The notes: a model not told the origin generated them from the sequence alone. A DNA stretch of 32,000 bases from Thermofilum pendens Hrk 5 (GCF_000015225.1 NC_008698.1:270001-302000), one strand, 5' to 3'; counted from the first letter of the stretch, positions 2,662 to 20,326 are shown. A program made the numbers and translations.

Positions 2662-3462
2662 GTGAACTGCATGGGATTGCAAAAGGGAGACTTCGTACTG
2701 GTAAACTACACGATAAGCGTGCTTGAAGAGTCGGGAGAAAGAGTGATCGACACAACAATCAAAGAAGAGGCCGAAAAGGCGGGCTTCAGAACAGAAAATG
2801 TAGCCTTCGAGCCGGAGCTTGTCGTCGTGGGTGAAGGGTTCCTGCTCAAACCCGTAGAGGAAAAGTTAGTCGAGATGAACGAGGGTGAGAAAAGGGAGAT
2901 AGTACTCGAACCTTCCCAGGCTTTCGGAGAGAGGGATCCCAAAAACATCCGCGTGATTCCGGCGCGTGAGCTATCGAGCAGGGGGATCATCCCCAGAGTC
3001 GGAGAGGAAATTGAGCTCGACGGCAAAAGAGGAAAGATAATTAAAATAGGAGCAGGAAGGGTCACGATCGACTTCAATCATCCCTTCGCAGGGAAGAAGG
3101 TTAAGGTTGTTCTCTCCCTAGAGAAGGTGCTGAAAAACGAGGAGGAGAAAATTAAAGTGCTCTTCCGTAGATGGTTCAGAGGGATACCCCAGGACAAAGT
3201 AAACGTGACCAAGGGAGACGGCGCAGTTAGGATAGAAGTTCCTCCATCGATATTCCTCTTCGAAAACTCCTTCAACCTACTGAGTGGGTTCGTAAGGGAC
3301 GTTGAGAAGTACTTCGGAGACATAGCTTCGATCGAGCTCGTAGAGAAGATACAGCTGGAGAGAGGAGAGAAAAAGGAGGGAGAGGCCGCCAGCGAGGCTA
3401 CGACCGCTTCAGGAGAAACCTCTTCGCAAGAAGCCAAAGCCGAGGAGAAGGCTGCTCAGTAG
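2662..3462 (+). CDS. Long-type archaeal FKBP peptidyl-prolyl cis-trans isomerase (FKBP fold with insert-in-flap plus C-terminal domain)
   Basis: 266 aa. Contains GDFVLVNYT...VVVGEGFLLKPVEEKLVEMNEGEKREI...AFGERDP...VTIDFNHPFAGKKV, which closely parallels archaeal FKBP/SlyD-like sequences (VTLDFNHELAGK block). Low-complexity E/A/S/T tail. The start may be ATG 2671. Confidence 0.9.
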   Translation: MNCMGLQKGDFVLVNYTISVLEESGERVIDTTIKEEAEKAGFRTENVAFEPELVVVGEGFLLKPVEEKLVEMNEGEKREIVLEPSQAFGERDPKNIRVIPARELSSRGIIPRVGEEIELDGKRGKIIKIGAGRVTIDFNHPFAGKKVKVVLSLEKVLKNEEEKIKVLFRRWFRGIPQDKVNVTKGDGAVRIEVPPSIFLFENSFNLLSGFVRDVEKYFGDIASIELVEKIQLERGEKKEGEAASEATTASGETSSQEAKAEEKAAQ

Positions 3463-3916
3463 CCTCTACTTCGCAGAGGAATAGCTGAGAATCAACCTTA
3501 GCCAACCGCCTGAGAACTTTCACTCTTTCGCCTTCTTCCACATATATTGGATCACACTCTACGCGGTACTTCCCTTTCACCTCCTCGCTACACTGCGGCT
3601 TCGAATACCTAACGGTAGCCCCTGGGAAGGCAAGGCGGGCGCTGAGTACAACGTTAAAGGGTTGTTCTTCGACTTCGACTACCCTCATCTTCTCTGCAAG
3701 CGCCGGGCACTGGTTGAAGTGGTTCCTCAGCGCCACAACCTTATACCTAACGAGCGGTCTAAGTGCGCCTATGCAGGCATTGAAATACTCACAGTCAATG
3801 CACTTCGACGAGAGAACGGGCTGAAAGGTTGCTCCTGGGTATGCAAAAGGCTCTGTAACCATGGAGATCGTTCTTCTACCCATGAGCAAGACACCAGAAA
3901 GCATAGAGATTGCCAT
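3398..3916 (-). CDS. UPF0179-family conserved archaeal protein (Cys-containing, unknown function)
   Basis: The pattern G-ATF...CIDCEYFNAC...L...YKVVALR....CP....MRVVEVE...VVLSARLAFPGATVRY..PQC......C.P...EEGERVKV matches my recollection of UPF0179 proteins such as M. jannaschii MJ1627. Start is uncertain (ATG at 3916, 3904, 3883 or 3862). The 3' end overlaps the FKBP 3' end by 65 nt. Confidence 0.75.
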   Translation of the reverse strand: MAISMLSGVLLMGRRTISMVTEPFAYPGATFQPVLSSKCIDCEYFNACIGALRPLVRYKVVALRNHFNQCPALAEKMRVVEVEEQPFNVVLSARLAFPGATVRYSKPQCSEEVKGKYRVECDPIYVEEGERVKVLRRLAKVDSQLFLCEVEATEQPSPRLWLLAKRFLLKRS

Positions 3917-3955
3917 GCATAAAGCTTTTAGCGTGCTCTTTTCCTTTCGAGCACG

Positions 3956-3970
3956 TATAAATATTTAAGG
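3956..3970. promoter_or_regulatory. AT-rich double TATA element in the divergent UPF0179 / psmB intergenic region
   Basis: TATAAATATTTAAGG. The TTTAAG part lies 30-35 nt upstream of psmB ATG 3999. The reverse-strand reading is positioned for the minus-strand gene. Confidence 0.5.
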
Positions 3971-3998
3971 CTCGTGAAACGAATTGTGCTGAGGCTTC

Positions 3999-4601
3999 AT
4001 GAGCGCGGATTTGCGGGATAAAGTATTGAAGGGTACAACGACTGTTGGACTCGTAGGTAAGGACTTCGTGGTGCTGGCGGCAGATAGGAGGGCGACCGCG
4101 GGGTATTTCATAGCAAACAAGCAAACGTGGAAAATTGTAGAGATAGACTCCCATATAGCCGCTACAATCGCTGGAACTGTTGGAGACGCCCAGCAGCTCG
4201 TCGACAGGTTGAGGGTAGAAGCTCGATACTACAAAACAATCACGGGAGACAGTATGCCCGTGAAAAGCGTTGCGACGCTGGCTTCCCTAATACTTTTCCA
4301 ATACAGGCCCATACTATCCGTTCAAATGCTGATTGGCGGTGTAGACTCAGACGGCCCATCACTCTTCTCGGTGGACTGGCTCGGCACGGTAACACGGGAG
4401 AAGTACACGGCCACGGGGTCTGGGTCGCCCTATGCGGTCTCGCTACTTGAGCACGAGTACAGAGAAGACCTCTCACTAGAAGAGGCCGTCAACCTTGCAG
4501 TAAAAGCTGTAAACATAGCTTTAGCCCGCGACCCAGGAAGCGGAGAAGGAGTGGACATTGCGACAATAACAAAGGAAGGAATAAGAATGAAGAGAGTTTA
4601 A
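3999..4601 (+). CDS. psmB: 20S proteasome beta subunit (Ntn hydrolase with propeptide)
   Basis: 200 aa. The propeptide [12 protein letters not shown] is followed by the catalytic [21 protein letters not shown]. The GSGS/GxG block ...[10 protein letters not shown] is typical of active beta subunits. Confidence 0.93.
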
Positions 4602-5101: not shown

Positions 5102-7021
5102 TTGGAGGCTATTATCGCCGTAGCGAGAGAGATCAGAGAGACGATAGCGAGCAACGTCCCAAAAGAAGCGGAAATAACGAAGGTAGACTTCGAGGGACCC
5201 AAAGTCGCTATCTACACCAAGAGACCGCAGGTCTTCTTGGAGAACGACGGAGAGCTCGTTAAGAGAATAGCGAAAACGATAAAGAAGAGGGTCATAGTGC
5301 GCGGGGATCCTGAGAGCAGATTGAACGAAGGTAGCGCCGAAGAATTCATAAAAAAAGCTGTCCCCCCGGAGGCTGGTTTAAAGAACGTCTACTTTAACGA
5401 TGTTACCGGCGAGGTTGAGCTGGAGGTCTTATACCCGGAGAAAATACCCCCCGAAGTTCTGAACAGGGTTTTCTTCGAGACTCTCTGGACGCCCAGAGTG
5501 TTGAGAAAGCCCCCCGTTCACTCTAGGACTGTAAGCGAGATAAGGGAGCTGTACAGGGCGTCAAAGCAGGAGAGAATAGATTTCCTGAGAAAGCTTGGAT
5601 ACAAGGTTTACCGCAAGCCTATCTTCCCGGCAGACAGGGTAAGAATAGTTTCGCTGGGCGCCTTCCACGAGGTCGGTAGAAGCGCCGTGCTAGTACAGAC
5701 ACCCGAGGCAAACATTCTGCTCGACGCCGGATTAAAGCCTACCGGCAACGGCGACGAACTACCCTTATTCGATTTACCGGAATTCGACCTGGAAAGCCTG
5801 GACGCAGTCGTAATTACGCATGCACACCTAGACCACGTTGGAGCCCTACCTGTTCTCTTCAAGTACGGGTACAAGGGACCCGTCTACATGACCGAACCTA
5901 CGCTTCACTTGTCAAAGCTACTGTTCGAGGACTACATAAAGGTGGCTCAGAGAGAGGGAAAGAACGAGCTTTACTCAATGCGGGATGTTAACTCGCTACT
6001 CCTCAACACGTATACGCTGTCCTACGGAGAGGTAACAGACATCGCGCCCGAGATAAGGCTCACCTTTTACCGTGCGGGGCACATACTCGGGTCGGCCATG
6101 GTCCACCTACACATAGGTGAAGGGCTCATCAACATCGTCTACACAGGGGACATGAAGTACGCTAGGACAATGCTACTGGACCCGGCCTACAACAAGTTTC
6201 CGAGGGCCGAGGTACTTATAATAGAATCTACGTACGGCTCTAAATCTGACGTATTGCCGAGTGAAGACGACGCTAAGCTAGAACTTGCAAAGATAGTGCT
6301 GGAGACCATAGAGAGAAAAGGGGTCGTCCTCATACCGGTCCTGGCCGTTGGGCGCGCCCAGGAGGTGCTGCTGGCGCTCTTAGACCTCATGAAAAAAGGC
6401 GCGGTGCCGCGCGTGCCTATATTCATTGAAGGGATGATAGACGAGGTCTCAGCCGTACACATGACGTTCCCGGAGTACCTCTCGGCCACTATAAGAGAAA
6501 TGATATACAGAGACGAGAACCCGTTTACCTCCGAGAACATCCACGTTATACGCGGGGAGGCCAGAGAGGACATCACAGAGAAAAAGCCCTCAATCATCCT
6601 GGCGACCTCAGGGATGCTTACAGGAGGGCCGGTACTGGACTACCTCAGGATCCTGGCGGATGACGAGAACAGTAGCCTAGTCTTCGTGAGCTACCAAGTG
6701 GAAGGGACTCTGGGAAGGAAGATACTCCAAGGGCTTAGAAAGCTAAGCTTCACAGACCCCTCCGGTAAAGTCATAAACAAGGACTTAAAGATGAGGGTAT
6801 ACAGGGTAGAGGGCTTCTCAGGACACAGCGATAGAAGGCAACTCGAGGCGTTCATAAGGAGAATGGAGCCTAGCCCTCGAACCGTGATCCTTAACCATGG
6901 AGAAGCTGGTAAAATAGAAGAGTTTAGAAGGTATCTCTCAAGCGAATGGTTCAAGAAGAAGACAGGGCTTAACCTCGACGTGCTAACGCCGAAGAACGCC
7001 GAGAGCATAAGAATAGTGTAG
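5102..7021 (+). CDS. aCPSF1: archaeal CPSF73-like beta-CASP metallo-beta-lactamase ribonuclease with N-terminal KH domains (transcription termination/RNA 3' processing factor)
   Basis: 639 aa. The N-terminal KH-like segment is EAEITKVDFEGPKVAIYTKRP. MBL motif 2 is VVITHAHLDHVGALP. The beta-CASP region and C-terminal ...GFSGHSDRRQL...ILNHGE motifs are present. Apparent TTG start. Confidence 0.93.
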   Translation: MEAIIAVAREIRETIASNVPKEAEITKVDFEGPKVAIYTKRPQVFLENDGELVKRIAKTIKKRVIVRGDPESRLNEGSAEEFIKKAVPPEAGLKNVYFNDVTGEVELEVLYPEKIPPEVLNRVFFETLWTPRVLRKPPVHSRTVSEIRELYRASKQERIDFLRKLGYKVYRKPIFPADRVRIVSLGAFHEVGRSAVLVQTPEANILLDAGLKPTGNGDELPLFDLPEFDLESLDAVVITHAHLDHVGALPVLFKYGYKGPVYMTEPTLHLSKLLFEDYIKVAQREGKNELYSMRDVNSLLLNTYTLSYGEVTDIAPEIRLTFYRAGHILGSAMVHLHIGEGLINIVYTGDMKYARTMLLDPAYNKFPRAEVLIIESTYGSKSDVLPSEDDAKLELAKIVLETIERKGVVLIPVLAVGRAQEVLLALLDLMKKGAVPRVPIFIEGMIDEVSAVHMTFPEYLSATIREMIYRDENPFTSENIHVIRGEAREDITEKKPSIILATSGMLTGGPVLDYLRILADDENSSLVFVSYQVEGTLGRKILQGLRKLSFTDPSGKVINKDLKMRVYRVEGFSGHSDRRQLEAFIRRMEPSPRTVILNHGEAGKIEEFRRYLSSEWFKKKTGLNLDVLTPKNAESIRIV

Positions 7022-7039
7022 CAAGCGTCACGTGAGCCA

Positions 7040-7612
7040 TTAAGACTTTGTCGAAAGTTCCCATAGCTCGTCTCCCAAGTAGTGGATGTTTCTAACAGCC
7101 TTCCCTTTCTGCGCACCTCTAATCTCATCAGAACCCATAATGGCAATGCCCAACGCTATTACGCGGTTCTTCTCTATTTCCCTAACGAGAACCCTGTCTC
7201 CAGGCTTGAATTCGCCGTCGATCTTTTTAATCCCTGGAACCATCACATCTGCGCCGTTAAGGATCCTAGGCACGGCCCCAGAGTCCACGTAGACGTTCGG
7301 AAAAACAGGGTAAACGCTGTTCTTGTAGATGAAGAACAGCGTCGGGACGAGCCCCGCGCTCCTCGTTTTCACGACTGTTAAAACTCCGTCGACGTAGTAC
7401 ATCTCTTCTATTTCCTCGTGCTTGACAGAGGCTACCTCGATTCTCGAAGCCTTCTCGAAGTAGGTGGCGAATACTTCCCCGAGAGAGCTCTTCACATCTT
7501 CCTCTACTTTCTTCCTGTCCTTCTTACTCAGAAGGTACCTCGAAGTTATCTTCAACGCTTGCCCCGACTTGCTCGTAGCTACCACCCTCCACCGTGTAAT
7601 AGGTAACCACAC
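7040..7612 (-). CDS. PUA-domain RNA-binding protein (MCT-1/Tma20-like pre-PUA plus PUA architecture)
   Basis: The C-terminal PUA block is VDSGAVPRILNGADVMVPGIKKIDGEFKPGDRVLVREIEKNRVIALGIAIMGSDEI. The N-terminal RYLLSKKDRKKVEEDV is typical of pre-PUA. The true start is probably internal: a TTG at 7555 reduces the overlap with the upstream gene from 89 to 32 nt. Confidence 0.8.
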   Translation of the reverse strand: MWLPITRWRVVATSKSGQALKITSRYLLSKKDRKKVEEDVKSSLGEVFATYFEKASRIEVASVKHEEIEEMYYVDGVLTVVKTRSAGLVPTLFFIYKNSVYPVFPNVYVDSGAVPRILNGADVMVPGIKKIDGEFKPGDRVLVREIEKNRVIALGIAIMGSDEIRGAQKGKAVRNIHYLGDELWELSTKS

Positions 7613-17572: not shown

Positions 17573-17697
17573 GGTTGAACGCGCGGAGAAGACCGGGGCT
17601 CAGCGAAAAGCTAAAGTGTGCACGAAAAGCCATTACTCTGACAATGACGACTTGAACCCGAACTGAAAAGCATGAGGAAGGCCGTCGCTACTGAGTC

Positions 17698-18039: not shown

Positions 18040-18300
18040 CTATTTTCTCTGAGCTATGCGCGACCCGGAGCATATCTCGGGGCATCTGTCCGATAAATCG
18101 TTGCAGATGGACTCGCAGACCGCTTTGCTGTCCTCGCAGATAGACTCGCATTGCTCGGAGAAGGCTCCTTGAGCCTCTGCGCACTCTTCGAGACAATCCG
18201 CGGCTGCCTCCTGACAACGCCTTGAACACTCATCGACGAAATCCATACACGCGGATATGCACTCGTCCTCGGACTTTTCCTTGGGAGCCTTCACAAGCAA
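18040..18300 (-). CDS. Acidic Cys-rich mini-protein with six CX3C motifs (predicted helical hairpin; possible metal-thiolate or disulfide-stapled protein)
   Basis: 86 aa with 12 Cys at residues 14/18, 25/29, 36/40, 51/55, 62/66 and 73/77, so CX3C pairs recur every 11 residues in two blocks separated by AEAQGAF. A 33-nt DNA periodicity is visible (gcagatggactcgca at 18103-18117 versus gcagatagactcgca at 18136-18150). TATA-like AATAATATATAG sits 22-28 nt upstream of the TTG 18300 / GTG 18294 start. Confidence 0.65.
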   Translation of the reverse strand: MLVKAPKEKSEDECISACMDFVDECSRRCQEAAADCLEECAEAQGAFSEQCESICEDSKAVCESICNDLSDRCPEICSGSRIAQRK

Positions 18301-18314
18301 AACCCTAAAAACGG

Positions 18315-18326
18315 CTATATATTATT
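18315..18326 (-). promoter_or_regulatory. TATA box for the CX3C mini-protein gene
   Basis: The minus strand reads AATAATATATAG, centred about 26 nt upstream of GTG 18294 and about 20 nt upstream of TTG 18300. This geometry is consistent with a leaderless transcript. Confidence 0.5.
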
Positions 18327-18485: not shown

Positions 18486-19952
18486 TTATTCTTGTGCCCC
18501 AGCTAGGCGTATCTTCAGCAGTTCTTCGACTAGCTTCTTCGCGGCTGGCTTAGCCTGCGCCTTTGCGGCTGCGAAGCGGTATAGCGCCTCCCAGAGCGTT
18601 GCATCTTCCGCCGCGTGCTCGAAAAGAGAGTCCTGGGGAACCTGGTAGTAGAGCATACCGGCGTTCCTTACGACTCTTACGACCCAACCCTCCTCTACTA
18701 CTCTCTCGTACCAGCCTGGCGGCGCGCCATCGACAGGCATCCTAGCGTAGATACGGGCGTAGTCGCCATGCCCTATGAGCACGAGGTTAAGCAACGCCCC
18801 TGCCACCGGTGCATAAAGATCGAGACGCTGACCATTCTGCCCGGGCTTCCTACCCCTCCTGCCTGGCGCTCCGTAGGCAACGTAGAGCCAGTGCCGAATC
18901 TTCGCGCACCTAGTGACCTTGCCTACGAATGCTACGTACTCCCATGCACGCTCAACCGCGGCGCGGGCATTAGCTATAGCGCTCTCCGCCGGCAAGTAGA
19001 TGTGCTCCTGTCCAACCTTAAAGTAGAGCCATCGAAGCCTTAGGAAGAATTCAAGCTCGCCGTCCCCTAGGAAAGCGGTCGCCAGTGCCACCGAGTCGCC
19101 GTTGAGCTCCTTGCACCTCTCGACGAGTGCACGGAACTCTGCTCGCTTCGTAGCGCCTACAAGTCCTGAAGCCCAGCCTAGCTCATCAGCGTAGCCGTGG
19201 ATGCTCACTTCCCACTTAATGCTCAGCCCGGTGCTACCGAGAATGCCCGCCGTGACACCTATGTCAACGTGGTCGCTTGGAAAGGTTGCGAGCGTGCTTG
19301 GAAGTTGCCAGCTCTGGGTAGTACCGAATTTTATGTCGCTGTAGCGCCCATGAGGGGGTGTCACATCCGTCAGGATCCACCCTCTCTGCAGGCTTCTAAG
19401 CACGTCTGGCGATGTCCTCGCGAGAACCTCCGGGAAACTAGTCTCTGTCCAGAAGCCCTCCAATGGGACGTGTACGATCCAGTCATATGTAGGCTTGTGT
19501 GCGATGACGTGCCAGTTCTCTCTAGGTATGTATACATGCCAGACTTTACCCTTCTTCTCGGCTCTAAGACCGTCTTCTGTTGCATCGACGATTGCCTGTA
19601 GCCTATCGCGTAGCTCTACGACCGCGCTTCCCTCCCTCGGCCTGTTGTCATCGCCTAGCAAGAGGTACTGCCTCAAATCGTAGTCAAACAGCTTGCCGAA
19701 CCTCGGGTAGACGTCGTCCGGCACGACTGTCAGCGCGTGCGCCACGAAGCGCGTAAAGTCCCAGTTAATCGTAGACACCGTGTCGAAGAGGCCGCGGTAG
19801 TGTACCCTGCCCTTCCTCCCGCCCCTGGCTTTCCTCTTATCCTCTGTCCTGGTGGCGTAGAGGCTTAGAGCCGCCCTCCTCCACGTCTCCTCTCTAACCT
19901 TTCTCTCAACCTCTTCATCCCCCATCACGTTCTCTCCAACCATACTTATCAC
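18486..19952 (-). CDS. Hypothetical 488-aa protein, no recognisable domain (Trp/Arg/Ala-rich, Ala/Lys-rich C-terminal tail)
   Basis: An uninterrupted 1467-nt ORF. No P-loop, CxxC, HExxH or other signature that I can recognise. It has 16 Trp by my count and the tail AAAKAQAKPAAKKLVEELLKIRLAGAQE. Possible starts are GTG 19952, ATG 19943 and ATG 19925; the last is preceded by GGAG with 8-nt spacing. Confidence 0.7.
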   Translation of the reverse strand: MISMVGENVMGDEEVERKVREETWRRAALSLYATRTEDKRKARGGRKGRVHYRGLFDTVSTINWDFTRFVAHALTVVPDDVYPRFGKLFDYDLRQYLLLGDDNRPREGSAVVELRDRLQAIVDATEDGLRAEKKGKVWHVYIPRENWHVIAHKPTYDWIVHVPLEGFWTETSFPEVLARTSPDVLRSLQRGWILTDVTPPHGRYSDIKFGTTQSWQLPSTLATFPSDHVDIGVTAGILGSTGLSIKWEVSIHGYADELGWASGLVGATKRAEFRALVERCKELNGDSVALATAFLGDGELEFFLRLRWLYFKVGQEHIYLPAESAIANARAAVERAWEYVAFVGKVTRCAKIRHWLYVAYGAPGRRGRKPGQNGQRLDLYAPVAGALLNLVLIGHGDYARIYARMPVDGAPPGWYERVVEEGWVVRVVRNAGMLYYQVPQDSLFEHAAEDATLWEALYRFAAAKAQAKPAAKKLVEELLKIRLAGAQE

Positions 19953-19956
19953 CCGT

Positions 19957-19966
19957 CCTTAAATGG
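19957..19966. promoter_or_regulatory. Shared AT-rich (TATA-like) element of the divergent 488-aa / 77-aa gene pair
   Basis: CCTTAAATGG is the only AT-rich element in the GC-rich spacer of about 60 bp. It reads CTTAAAT toward the plus-strand gene and ATTTAAG toward the minus-strand gene. Confidence 0.4.
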
Positions 19967-19974
19967 TGGAGGGG

Positions 19975-19991
19975 GCGCCCTGCGAGGGCGC
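19975..19991. promoter_or_regulatory. Perfect 7-bp inverted repeat (GCGCCCT-gcg-AGGGCGC), operator-like or 5'-UTR hairpin
   Basis: Read directly from the sequence. It lies between the TATA-like element and the GGTGG SD (20008-20012) / ATG 20016 of the 77-aa gene, around the expected transcription start. Confidence 0.4.
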
Positions 19992-20012
19992 GGCATCAGG
20001 GGTCAGTGGTGG

Positions 20013-20246
20013 TTGATGAGTGACCCGAGGGATATCGTGCGAACGATAGGCGCGCTTTCGCGTCTTCTGGCGAGCACTCTTAAGGGCGACGAGCTGTACG
20101 AGGCGCGCCTAGTAGAGGCTTTGGACGCAATCGAAGAGTTTCTAGCCTCCGTGGGAAGCGCCCCAGCGAGGGTCGAGGAAGACGAGGAGCTAGCGAGAGA
20201 GCTTGAGGAGGACGTCGAAGAGCTTAGGGGGCTTGGGCTAGCGTAA
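20013..20246 (+). CDS. Hypothetical acidic helical 77-aa protein (start probably ATG 20016)
   Basis: Sequence is MSDPRDIVRTIGALSRLLASTLKGDELYEARLVEALDAIEEFLASVGSAPARVEEDEELARELEEDVEELRGLGLA. An SD-like GGTGG lies 4-8 nt upstream of the ATG, and two T5 runs follow the stop. No motif recognised. Confidence 0.5.
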   Translation: MMSDPRDIVRTIGALSRLLASTLKGDELYEARLVEALDAIEEFLASVGSAPARVEEDEELARELEEDVEELRGLGLA

Positions 20247-20250
20247 AAAC

Positions 20251-20267
20251 TCTTTTTCTCCTTTTTC
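20251..20267 (+). terminator. Oligo-T archaeal terminator after the 77-aa gene
   Basis: tCTTTTTCtcCTTTTTcc contains two T5 runs within 25 nt of the TAA at 20244-20246. Archaeal RNA polymerase terminates at such oligo-T tracts. Confidence 0.5.
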
Positions 20268-20326
20268 CCTGGTTTGTAAACGCGGGAGCACGCGAGAGTG
20301 CGGTATAGCTTTCAGAACCGCCAGGC

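Follow-up and report, generated by a model that had tools for sequence, protein, structure and literature searches.

The window analysed here is a 32,000-nt stretch of the Thermofilum pendens Hrk 5 genome. The locus under study holds a large gene and a small gene in divergent orientation on either side of a short spacer, with a Cys-rich ORF to the left of the pair. Its features, numbered from the first nucleotide of the window, are as follows.

18040-18300, minus strand: 86-aa Cys-rich ORF to the left of the module, with a weak DUF326 match (E 0.0028).
18486-19952, minus strand: large gene, an ORF of 488 aa (stop codon included in the coordinates), assigned to an unnamed Thermoproteales family with a predicted double LAGLIDADG-like core.
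18489-18815, minus strand: tail module of the large protein (aa 380-488), present in two variants that appear to have been recombined among paralogs.
18612-18734, minus strand: C-terminal alpha-beta-beta-alpha segment (aa 407-447), recognised by comparing the subfamily consensus with Pfam.
19059-19094, minus strand: LAGLIDADG-like motif 2 (aa 287-298, SVALATAFLGD(297)G(298)), a predicted helix with a near-invariant Asp-Gly at its end.
19362-19409, minus strand: LAGLIDADG-like motif 1 (aa 182-197, PDVLRSLQRGWILTD(196)V), with a predicted helix at aa 182-193 and a near-invariant Asp at its end.
19953-20012: divergent control region of 60 bp common to both genes, with a TATA-like box and an inverted repeat.
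19959-19964, in the spacer: TATA-like sequence TTAAAT.
19975-19991, in the spacer: inverted repeat GCGCCCT-GCG-AGGGCGC (7+3+7).
20013-20246, plus strand: small partner gene, encoding an acidic, helical protein of 77 aa from the TTG at 20013 (76 aa from the ATG at 20016).
20247-20288, plus strand: conserved stretch 3' of the small gene with T-runs, terminator-like for archaea, including CCCTGGTTTGTAAACGCGGGAG (22 nt) at 20267-20288.

The 488-aa ORF proposed in the first-pass annotation was found in the translation, where it is read from a GTG at 19952. This GTG is doubtful as a start because the TATA-like box is 7 nt away and the equivalent ATG of L002, a further copy of the gene pair, is out of frame; the real start is probably the ATG at 19925, which corresponds to M10. 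The protein is basic (pI 8.6), of the DNA-binding type, and contains the 16 Trp residues (3.3%) that had been counted, with A, L, V, R and G as the most frequent residues. Both the N-terminal basic patch and the tail rich in Ala and Lys described earlier were seen. The composition had also been called deviant, but ValRS is nearly as rich in Trp (3.0%), and the GC content (0.577), GC3 (0.664) and codon-usage distance (0.171) of the large gene lay in the ranges spanned by the neighbouring genes. Foreign DNA composition was ruled out by these host-like values. The absence of a nameable signature was confirmed: direct searches with the large and the small protein gave no match in Pfam, NCBIfam, PADLOC, PHROGs or the PDB sequences, and a family profile retrieved nothing but designed helical proteins from the latter.

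The spacer was as described, 60 bp long with TTAAAT as its single AT-rich box. The palindrome said to be perfect has perfect 7-nt arms, but its central 3 nt are asymmetric. It occurs once in the window, compared with 0.19 occurrences expected. Since the repeat lies at or near the plus-strand transcript start expected from the TATA-like box, it is a candidate operator. No structured RNA was found when the spacer was searched against Rfam. The stretch CCATACTTA..CCTTAAATGGTGGA.GGGGCGCC..GCGAGGGCG is kept in the spacers of the window, L001 and L002, in agreement with the earlier view of a two-gene cassette with a common divergent promoter.

The divergent 77-aa acidic ORF was also found, and its product has a pI of 4.17 and a net charge of -12. 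With a dN/dS of 0.09-0.22 at a dS of 0.67-1.08, the small gene can be taken as genuine and under purifying selection. Its 18 homologs, 72-100% identical, came from T. pendens or a hot-spring metagenome only, and no family or PDB match was found for the protein, which by this comparison is specific to the T. pendens lineage. It has about 15 paralogs, and 15 clusters are carried by the same genome that carries 14 clusters of the large protein. Downstream of the small gene, the 3' flank is common to the window and L001 up to position 20288 and divergent beyond it, while L002 departs earlier, at about 20270; the 22-nt CCCTGGTTTGTAAACGCGGGAG occurs once in the window. The region of 20288 therefore appears to be the approximate right-hand boundary of the repeated unit.

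The large protein had been called an orphan, which did not hold. It matches a hypothetical protein of T. pendens at 100% identity and has 14 further paralog clusters, giving 15 T. pendens clusters at 90% identity (37-100% identity), to which 3 more were added for a total of 18. Another homolog search brought up known paralogs and a single fragment. Fourteen of these 18 clusters are in one genome, which has a contig of 1,815,852 bp, and most 90% clusters are confined to one of two genomes. A profile search for the large family gave 33 matches in total, and about 30 clusters of distant members were found in Thermoproteales MAGs, where these remote homologs either occur in several copies or are located at the ends of contigs. 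The small gene adjoins a large-family gene divergently in all three copies for which DNA was available (the window, L001 and L002). The L001 copy pairs P0031 with P0013 and neighbours an M48 peptidase gene, not ASCH. A homolog of the small partner was looked for beside remote members of the large family and none was found. Because the same acidic partner stands beside all three copies with DNA, the gene pair looks like a repeated, DNA-targeting two-gene cassette of T. pendens, which is probably selfish or domesticated.

Comparison of the paralogs gave conflicting groupings for different parts of the large protein. The tail of the window protein is 72-77% identical to those of P0002-4 and P0013-15 and 40-58% identical to those of P0005-12, whereas its core (aa 129-360) is 26-28% identical to that of P0013-15 and 64-81% identical to that of P0005-12. 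As core and tail identities group the copies in conflict, the paralogs appear to be mosaics in which the ends are conserved, the core is divergent and parts have been recombined between copies. The paralogs are 61-81% identical with a dS of about 0.7-1.1, a divergence that gives no sign of recent copying.

The cassette had been suspected to be an insertion in the rpl35ae-valS interval, and comparison with relatives agreed with this. Gene order at the locus in Thermofilaceae relatives is ValRS-ASCH-[UxaE-like gene]-L35Ae-ThiI. The UxaE-like gene occupies the slot between ValRS and L35Ae in four Thermofilaceae MAGs, two of which (L005 and L021) have ASCH after ValRS; the comparison used the relatives' contigs, in which the best ValRS match was 73% identical. 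On this evidence the cassette is lineage-specific at the ValRS-L35Ae locus. The 86-aa Cys-rich ORF is also missing from the relatives' syntenic slot, and it has an AT-rich box of its own at approximately 18312-18325. The genes flanking the cassette are housekeeping genes and do not form a defence island. A search around the module for terminal inverted or direct repeats and target-site duplications gave short matches at chance level only, no tRNA gene that could serve as an integration site was found in the window, and no relatives of the cassette were found in viral contigs, phage records or plasmid records.

Two conserved motifs in the large protein resemble those of LAGLIDADG proteins. In the family, motif 1 reads LQxGW[RIL]x[ST]D(196) and motif 2 reads LLTxxLGD(297)G. 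They are separated by 101 aa, within the spacing of about 90-110 residues between the motif helices of monomeric LAGLIDADG proteins. D196 and D297 place an acidic residue at the base of both motif helices, and active LAGLIDADG endonucleases retain such a residue at the base of each (PMC3384342). In alignments of 33-43 sequences, G191 and G298 are invariant, and conservation is at least 90% for W192, D196 and D297. Conservation is 0.80-0.82 in the motif helices and 0.90 in a TTQxWQ element, compared with 0.52-0.68 in the predicted strands, within which the variable positions alternate when paralogs are compared. In LAGLIDADG proteins the beta1-beta2 loop of either domain carries a basic residue that is conserved (K43 and K130 in I-DmoI). 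In the large protein, R307 is invariant among the T. pendens paralogs, whereas K351 is kept without exception throughout the family. The R-x-WLY elements, proposed earlier as an internal duplication, did not behave as one: W308, Y310 and W355 vary, both elements belong to a single domain but to different secondary-structure elements in it, and no match was obtained when domain 1 was compared with domain 2 by hhalign.

The fold was evaluated by structure prediction and structural searches. An AF2 model of aa 166-488 had a pLDDT of 90.4, and when it was searched against the PDB with Foldseek, the top 44 matches were all LAGLIDADG proteins, including I-WcaI (probability 1.00), I-Tsp061I (0.98), I-SceI (0.96), I-OnuI, I-CreI derivatives and WhiA. 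An earlier model of low confidence gave the same LAGLIDADG matches. In a BFVD search, I-SceI-like proteins and LAGLIDADG endonucleases were matched with a probability of about 1.0 and a TM of up to 0.43, and most of the named matches were LAGLIDADG proteins. Global superposition of the model on LAGLIDADG structures was poor, however, with a TM of 0.2-0.43 and an rmsd of 6-17 A, which counts against the fold assignment.

Sequence-level matches pointed in the same direction below the usual thresholds. Using hhalign, motif 2 was aligned in register with LLGLIIGDGG of I-DmoI and LAGFVDGDGS of I-CreI at low probabilities, and the motif-2 region of the family member P0059 matched positions 4-48 of Pfam LAGLIDADG_3. 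The consensus of the segment at aa 407-447 matched LAGLIDADG_3 (E 0.002, 18.8 bits, cutoff 22.5), LAGLIDADG_2 (E 0.0099, 16.3-16.4 bits, cutoff 25) and LAGLIDADG_WhiA (E 0.016, 15.8 bits, cutoff 23.2), and its best local hhalign match, not significant, was to residues 125-172 of I-DmoI. In the second LAGLIDADG-like domain, this segment probably makes up the second half (alpha2-beta3-beta4-alpha3), with an insertion of about 90 aa probably lying between it and motif 2. None of the curated Pfam LAGLIDADG cutoffs was reached and the window protein itself matched no LAGLIDADG model. Domain 1 gave no LAGLIDADG match at the sequence level, and its assignment is supported by the motif, the order of predicted secondary-structure elements and Foldseek. 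The unreached Pfam cutoffs and the low hhalign probabilities, together with the poor superposition, count against this fold.

The large protein is best read, from its modelled structure, as belonging to a new, unnamed and Thermoproteales-wide family with a strongly diverged double LAGLIDADG fold, the fold of homing endonucleases that cut DNA at specific sites. Taking the locus as a whole, we consider it a multicopied cassette of a divergent free-standing double-LAGLIDADG protein and a lineage-specific acidic partner, with a probability of roughly 0.55. The large protein would consist of a helical/beta N-terminal region followed by the double LAGLIDADG core with its insertion in the second domain, and its beta-sheet saddle would bind a long specific DNA site. 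Since D196 and D297 are kept across the family, DNA binding and metal-dependent cleavage or nicking are the most likely activities, and the protein may cleave or nick the bound site with divalent metal ions. It is thus probably a site-specific DNA binder or cutter, and the earlier suggestion of a nuclease remains the most likely activity. The predicted strands are the most variable part and vary in an alternating pattern, which suggests that the copies of the cassette may recognise different DNA sites.

The small gene would be transcribed divergently from the common promoter, with the inverted repeat as candidate operator. By analogy with immunity or DNA-mimic proteins, its product might modulate or inhibit the DNA-binding protein, a role that we propose with low confidence. 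The pairing was seen in three copies and the remote homologs have no partner, points that count against this part of the reading. The cassette itself would have been copied to different chromosomal sites, with parts recombined between copies, and may be an old, partly domesticated, selfish element of the homing type. Against mobility stand the age of the paralogs, the host-like codon usage, the absence of terminal repeats around the module and the absence of copies from the viral, phage and plasmid sequences searched.

A more active form of selfish element is possible rather than probable. The locus would then represent a kind of archaeal selfish element not recognised before, a LAGLIDADG cassette of two genes, free of introns and inteins, that encodes an active thermostable meganuclease and a dedicated acidic inhibitor or immunity protein; its target specificity would have been diversified by swapping the divergent recognition core between conserved ends, and the PaREP2b repeats of Pyrobaculum might be distant relatives.

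It is also conceivable, though we do not favour it, that the large proteins are domesticated regulators with a LAGLIDADG fold, like WhiA, that bind DNA or a partner, for example at their own divergent promoter, with neither cleavage nor movement. In favour are the age of the family, its purifying selection, its host-like codon usage, its additional N- and C-terminal regions and the absence of signs of recent mobility. WhiA was among the Foldseek matches, LAGLIDADG_WhiA matched the consensus, and the position of the conserved inverted repeat is one that a repressor would occupy in archaea. However, WhiA has lost both acidic residues, has a helix-turn-helix (HTH) domain at its C-terminus and is single-copy (PMC3384342). 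In the window family at least 90% of 43 sequences keep D196 and D297, and no HTH domain was detected in the large protein. Such a regulator would also not be expected to have expanded to about 14 divergent copies in a genome, at loci unrelated to one another, or to have replaced a metabolic gene.

The first-pass annotation had suggested a toxin-antitoxin pair or defence effector, in which a nuclease and an acidic antitoxin or immunity factor would be kept by addiction or anti-virus benefit, not by homing. The charges suit it, the acidic small protein facing a basic partner of the DNA-binding type, and so do the tight linkage of the genes in three of three copies, the palindrome in the common promoter and a multicopy, mosaic family that differs between two genomes. 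But neither protein matched a toxin, antitoxin or defence family in PADLOC, Pfam or NCBIfam, the neighbours are housekeeping genes, and the genes are divergent whereas typical type II toxin-antitoxin operons are co-transcribed. Furthermore, remote family members have no small partner, indicating that the large protein is not intrinsically antidote-dependent. We regard this explanation as improbable.

A resemblance to PaREP2 had also been suggested. The part of that suggestion that stood is the general one, a repeated, PaREP-style paralogous family of crenarchaea; membership in PaRep2a/b did not. In Thermoproteales, the paREP2 families occur in many copies and accompany indels that distinguish genomes (PMC3558965), and aa 366-427 of the remote member P0055 matched positions 109-170 of Pfam PaRep2b (E 0.0035). 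When the PaRep2a/b models were searched against 43 members, however, none exceeded the cutoff; this local match (16.4 bits, cutoff 20.4) covers 62 of the 512 profile positions in one of the 43, and neither the window protein nor any of its T. pendens paralogs gave a PaRep2b match. The matched stretch is a short alpha-beta-beta-alpha unit that also matches LAGLIDADG and SPOR models, so it may be a common small sub-fold only. It is thus very doubtful that the cassette is the Thermofilum counterpart of the Pyrobaculum PaREP2b repeats, described as putative transposons. Weakest of all and practically untenable is the PD-(D/E)xK nuclease, whose proposed catalytic residues D196, D206 and K208 are at their stated places with the spacing D196-x9-D206-x-K208 in the window protein alone, but D206 (conservation 0.6) and K208 (0.2) vary even among 61-73%-identical paralogs and are absent in remote homologs, D196 ends a predicted helix and not a strand, and the structure searches returned a LAGLIDADG-like fold in place of the restriction-endonuclease-like one anticipated, with no such fold among the best 50 matches listed in each of three structural searches.

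If the double-LAGLIDADG reading is true, one of the large 'hypothetical' repeat families that account for much of the Thermoproteales accessory genome would gain a fold and a function open to testing, and the question arises whether the PaREP-type families generally derive from homing endonucleases that have diverged. An obligate small acidic partner would then add to LAGLIDADG enzymes an accessory of a new kind, regulatory or inhibitory. The closest characterised relatives of the large protein are genome-engineering scaffolds, and if fold and catalytic residues mean activity, T. pendens would have a natural set of about 14 diversified meganuclease-like proteins that are hyperthermostable. Should they be inactive, they would represent a second independent domestication of LAGLIDADG besides WhiA, in Archaea.

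Among known systems, PaREP2b (PF07775, Pyrobaculum) resembles the window family in being a group of multicopy, lineage-specific large proteins of Thermoproteales with one weak local match. It differs in that the similarity is confined to a 62-aa sub-domain of one remote member and that the Pfam cutoff is reached by none of the members. An analogy is offered by the free-standing homing endonuclease genes of phages, which are intergenic, intron-less and able to spread between related genomes (PMC3384342). The colicin E9/Im9 nuclease-immunity pair offers another, in which the gene of a DNA-targeting enzyme adjoins that of a small acidic protein. Both differ in nuclease fold, which is GIY-YIG or HNH in most phage cases and HNH in colicins, and relatives of the window cassette were not found on viral contigs. 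WhiA/DUF199, a domesticated regulator of Gram-positive bacteria, shares a host-encoded, free-standing LAGLIDADG fold with extra domains and appears among the Foldseek and sub-threshold Pfam matches; unlike WhiA, the window family keeps the acidic residues, is multicopy and gave no HTH.

The closest likeness is to the monomeric LAGLIDADG endonucleases (I-DmoI, I-SceI, I-WcaI, I-Tsp061I and I-OnuI), which share the two motif helices about 100 aa apart with conserved Asp(-Gly) ends and the predicted order of helices and strands, and which are almost the sole structural neighbours of the large-protein model. The sub-threshold matches to three Pfam models and the register of motif 2 with I-DmoI and I-CreI fit the same comparison. 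In contrast to these enzymes of about 190-300 aa, the window family, known from sequence and predicted structure alone, is roughly twice as large (479-488 aa), with an N-terminal region of about 165 aa, the domain 2 insertion of about 90 aa and a helical tail. Its motif 1 is atypical, GW[RIL]x[ST]D[EV], the TM values are 0.2-0.43, and it lies outside introns and inteins, in about 14 divergent chromosomal copies per genome, with a dedicated small partner.

Our check of ORFs, composition and sequence agreed with the first-pass annotation on the two divergent ORFs, the spacer of about 60 bp, the AT-rich box, the inverted repeat and the 16 Trp residues of the larger product. The elements of this cassette are as follows:

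18486-19952, minus strand: large ORF, 488 aa, GTG start
20013-20246, plus strand: small ORF, 77 aa
19959-19964, spacer: TTAAAT, TATA-like
19975-19991, spacer: inverted repeat GCGCCCT-GCG-AGGGCGC (7-bp arms, 3-nt centre)

The gap between the ORFs was 60 bp. Ala, Leu, Val, Arg and Gly were abundant in the large protein (pI 8.6), while the small protein carried a net charge of -12 and had a pI of 4.17. No match to either protein was found in Pfam, NCBIfam, PADLOC, PHROGs or PDB sequences. Two starts have been proposed for the large gene, GTG 19952 (annotated or longest) and ATG 19943 (NCBI model). Since the TATA-like box precedes GTG 19952 by only 7 nt, and in another cassette copy (L002, 1-135) the ATG equivalent to the window start falls out of frame, the protein probably starts at ATG 19925 and both proposed starts would be wrong. 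As the inverted repeat is located at or just upstream of the position where a TATA-driven plus-strand transcript would start, it is a candidate operator.

The large protein was 100% identical to a hypothetical protein of Thermofilum pendens. It had been regarded as an orphan, but 14 further paralog clusters (37-73% identity) and three additional members, Tpen_0804, ABL77965 and ABL77859, were found in T. pendens, and the family profile gave 33 matches in a search of 1.84 billion representative proteins. The distant matches were "hypothetical proteins" of 350-490 aa from Vulcanisaeta, Thermoproteaceae and Infirmifilum MAGs and hot-spring metagenomes. Fourteen of the large-family clusters, and 15 of the 18 homologs of the small protein (72-100% identity; 17 from T. 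pendens, one from a metagenome contig), occurred in the T. pendens genome with a 1,815,852-bp contig. According to the protein-cluster records, only the most divergent members, ABL77965 and ABL77859, were common to Hrk 5 and that strain. No 90% cluster of the main expansion was listed from both genomes, which suggests that cassette copies turn over or diverge rapidly within T. pendens.

The repeat nature of the large family is well supported. Several distant homologs were placed at contig ends and one Vulcanisaeta MAG carried two copies within 5 kb, as fits repeats that break assemblies. At that MAG locus (L003; 1004-2473, minus; 2782-4152, minus; 6001-7476, plus), the two members were separated by a 456-aa gene without a Pfam match and not of the large family. 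When the three copies with readable DNA (window, L001 and L002) were compared, the small gene faced the N-terminus of a large-family gene in L002 as well, and in L001 the small gene P0031 was divergent from and adjoined the N-terminus of P0013, whose core was only 27% identical to that of the window protein. All three copies retained the promoter region with its TATA-like box and inverted repeat. Similarity of L001 and L002 to the window stopped approximately 25-42 bp past the stop codon of the small gene, and the far-side neighbour was an M48 peptidase gene in L001 versus ASCH in the window. The two genes thus appear to be a repeated unit. With a dN/dS of 0.09-0.22 at a dS of 0.67-1.08, the small ORF qualifies as a genuine gene. 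No relative of it was found beside the distant large-family homologs, so the partner is a novelty that arose within T. pendens and its lineage.

Positions near-invariant throughout the family were G191, W192 and D196 (motif LQxGWRASDE; LQRGWILTDV in the window), T211, W215 and Q216 (MGTTQPWQ), D297 and G298 (LLTxxLGDG), and K351. The two D-ending motifs were 101 residues apart, each in a predicted helix followed by beta-hairpins, the same signature as in monomeric double-motif LAGLIDADG enzymes. AlphaFold modelling of the full-length protein gave a poor result (pLDDT 57.7), yet the best 50 PDB neighbours of this model were all LAGLIDADG proteins. With 43 sequences as input, a second model restricted to aa 166-488 achieved a pLDDT of 90.4 and a pTM of 0.68; its top 44 PDB matches were again all LAGLIDADG proteins, including I-WcaI (probability 1.00), I-Tsp061I (0.98), I-SceI (0.96), I-OnuI, I-CreI derivatives, WhiA and bI3 maturase. 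Matches in BFVD, a viral-protein library, were I-SceI-like and LAGLIDADG endonucleases. The TM-scores of the structural matches were low (0.2-0.43). By hhalign, motif 2 was in register with the motifs of I-DmoI (sequence checked against PDB) and I-CreI. The motif-2 region of the family member P0059 matched LAGLIDADG_3 positions 4-48, and the consensus of a distant subfamily matched LAGLIDADG_3 (E 0.002), LAGLIDADG_2 (E 0.0099) and LAGLIDADG_WhiA (E 0.016), every score lying below its Pfam cutoff; sequence-level support is weak but consistent. Because all three consensus matches fell on a C-terminal alpha-beta-beta-alpha segment, this segment may represent the second half of domain 2, shifted away from the first by an inserted stretch of about 90 aa. 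The fold of the family is well supported, and we put the probability of a LAGLIDADG fold for the large protein at roughly 85%.

Membership in PaREP2a/b, raised in the first-pass annotation, was rejected, as one of 43 members gave a single local sub-threshold match. In a separate observation, the alpha-beta-beta-alpha segment (P0055, a remote member, aa 366-427, and the subfamily consensus) weakly matched PaRep2b, SPOR and three LAGLIDADG Pfam models; since one short segment matches models of both, Pyrobaculum PaREP2b proteins might possibly contain a LAGLIDADG-like sub-domain. The proposed D196/D206/K208 core of a PD-(D/E)xK nuclease was ruled out because D206 and K208 vary even between close paralogs, though D196 is invariant. 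The two R-x-WLY elements of the supposed duplication are variable and fall in different elements of one domain, and hhalign of the two halves gave no match.

Active LAGLIDADG endonucleases retain an acidic residue at the base of each motif helix; WhiA, a domesticated regulator, lacks these residues through loss (PMC3384342). Both are conserved in the large family, unlike in WhiA, which makes nuclease activity plausible. Among 12 close paralogs, conservation was highest in TTQxWQ (0.90) and the motif helices (0.80-0.82) and lowest in the predicted strands (0.52-0.68), with conserved and variable positions alternating, as would be expected for a diversifying DNA-contacting sheet face. Among the paralogs P0001-P0015, groupings by core (aa 129-360) conflicted with those by tail (aa 380-488), and the tail occurred in two types common to very divergent cores. 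P0013-15 were 26-28% identical to the window protein in the core and 73-77% in the tail, while P0005-12 were 64-81% identical in the core and only 40-58% in the tail. This conflict indicates recombination or gene conversion among cassette copies. The core was far less conserved than either cassette end (the tail; the promoter and small gene). The small protein is acidic, helical and encoded beside a putative DNA-binding enzyme; from its linkage, purifying selection and charge, it may act as an inhibitor, an immunity protein or a DNA mimic. Like this role of the partner, the nuclease activity and mobility of the cassette are inferences.

The neighbourhood of the pair comprises the genes for ThiI, L35Ae, ValRS and a protein with an ASCH domain, together with a Cys-rich ORF of 86 aa. 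The rpl35ae-valS interval was compared in the four Thermofilaceae MAGs nearest to the window (ValRS identity 71-73%; ASCH gene detected in two, L005 and L021), and the cassette proved lineage-specific at this locus: the order there was ValRS-ASCH-UxaE-like gene (487-504 aa)-L35Ae-ThiI, and the corresponding slot in the window holds the cassette and the Cys-rich ORF.

L005, 11073-12536, plus strand: UxaE-like (tagaturonate epimerase family) gene in the cassette slot
L021, 11011-12525, plus strand: UxaE-like gene in the cassette slot
Window, 18040-18300, minus strand: Cys-rich ORF, 86 aa, 13 Cys, CxxxC-type spacing, weak DUF326 match (E 0.0028)

The UxaE-like gene has been lost or replaced at this position in T. 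pendens. The Cys-rich ORF has its own AT-rich promoter-like box (about 18312-18325) and was not found in the syntenic slot of the Thermofilaceae relatives; it could have come in together with the cassette or separately from it. A deviant DNA composition was not borne out, as GC (0.577), GC3 (0.664) and codon-usage distance (0.171) all fell among the values of the 23 remaining long ORFs in the window. Between ThiI and L35Ae, 17640-17696 (plus strand) gave full-length sub-threshold matches to three Rfam C/D-box models (sR9, 21.8 bits), has its boxes in the expected succession C (AUGACGA), D' (CUGA), C' (AUGAGGA), D (CUGA), and is likely an unannotated C/D-box sRNA.

A search of a literature collection found no mention of these genes, nor of LAGLIDADG together with T. 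pendens. As a repeat family, the large family is analogous to PaREP2b, whose families are described as putative transposons (PMC3558965). It probably descends from LAGLIDADG homing endonucleases and may work like them. However, it fails their curated family thresholds, its proteins are about twice as large, and it is free-standing and multicopy, with a dedicated partner gene in T. pendens; we regard it as new, divergent kin of LAGLIDADG proteins.
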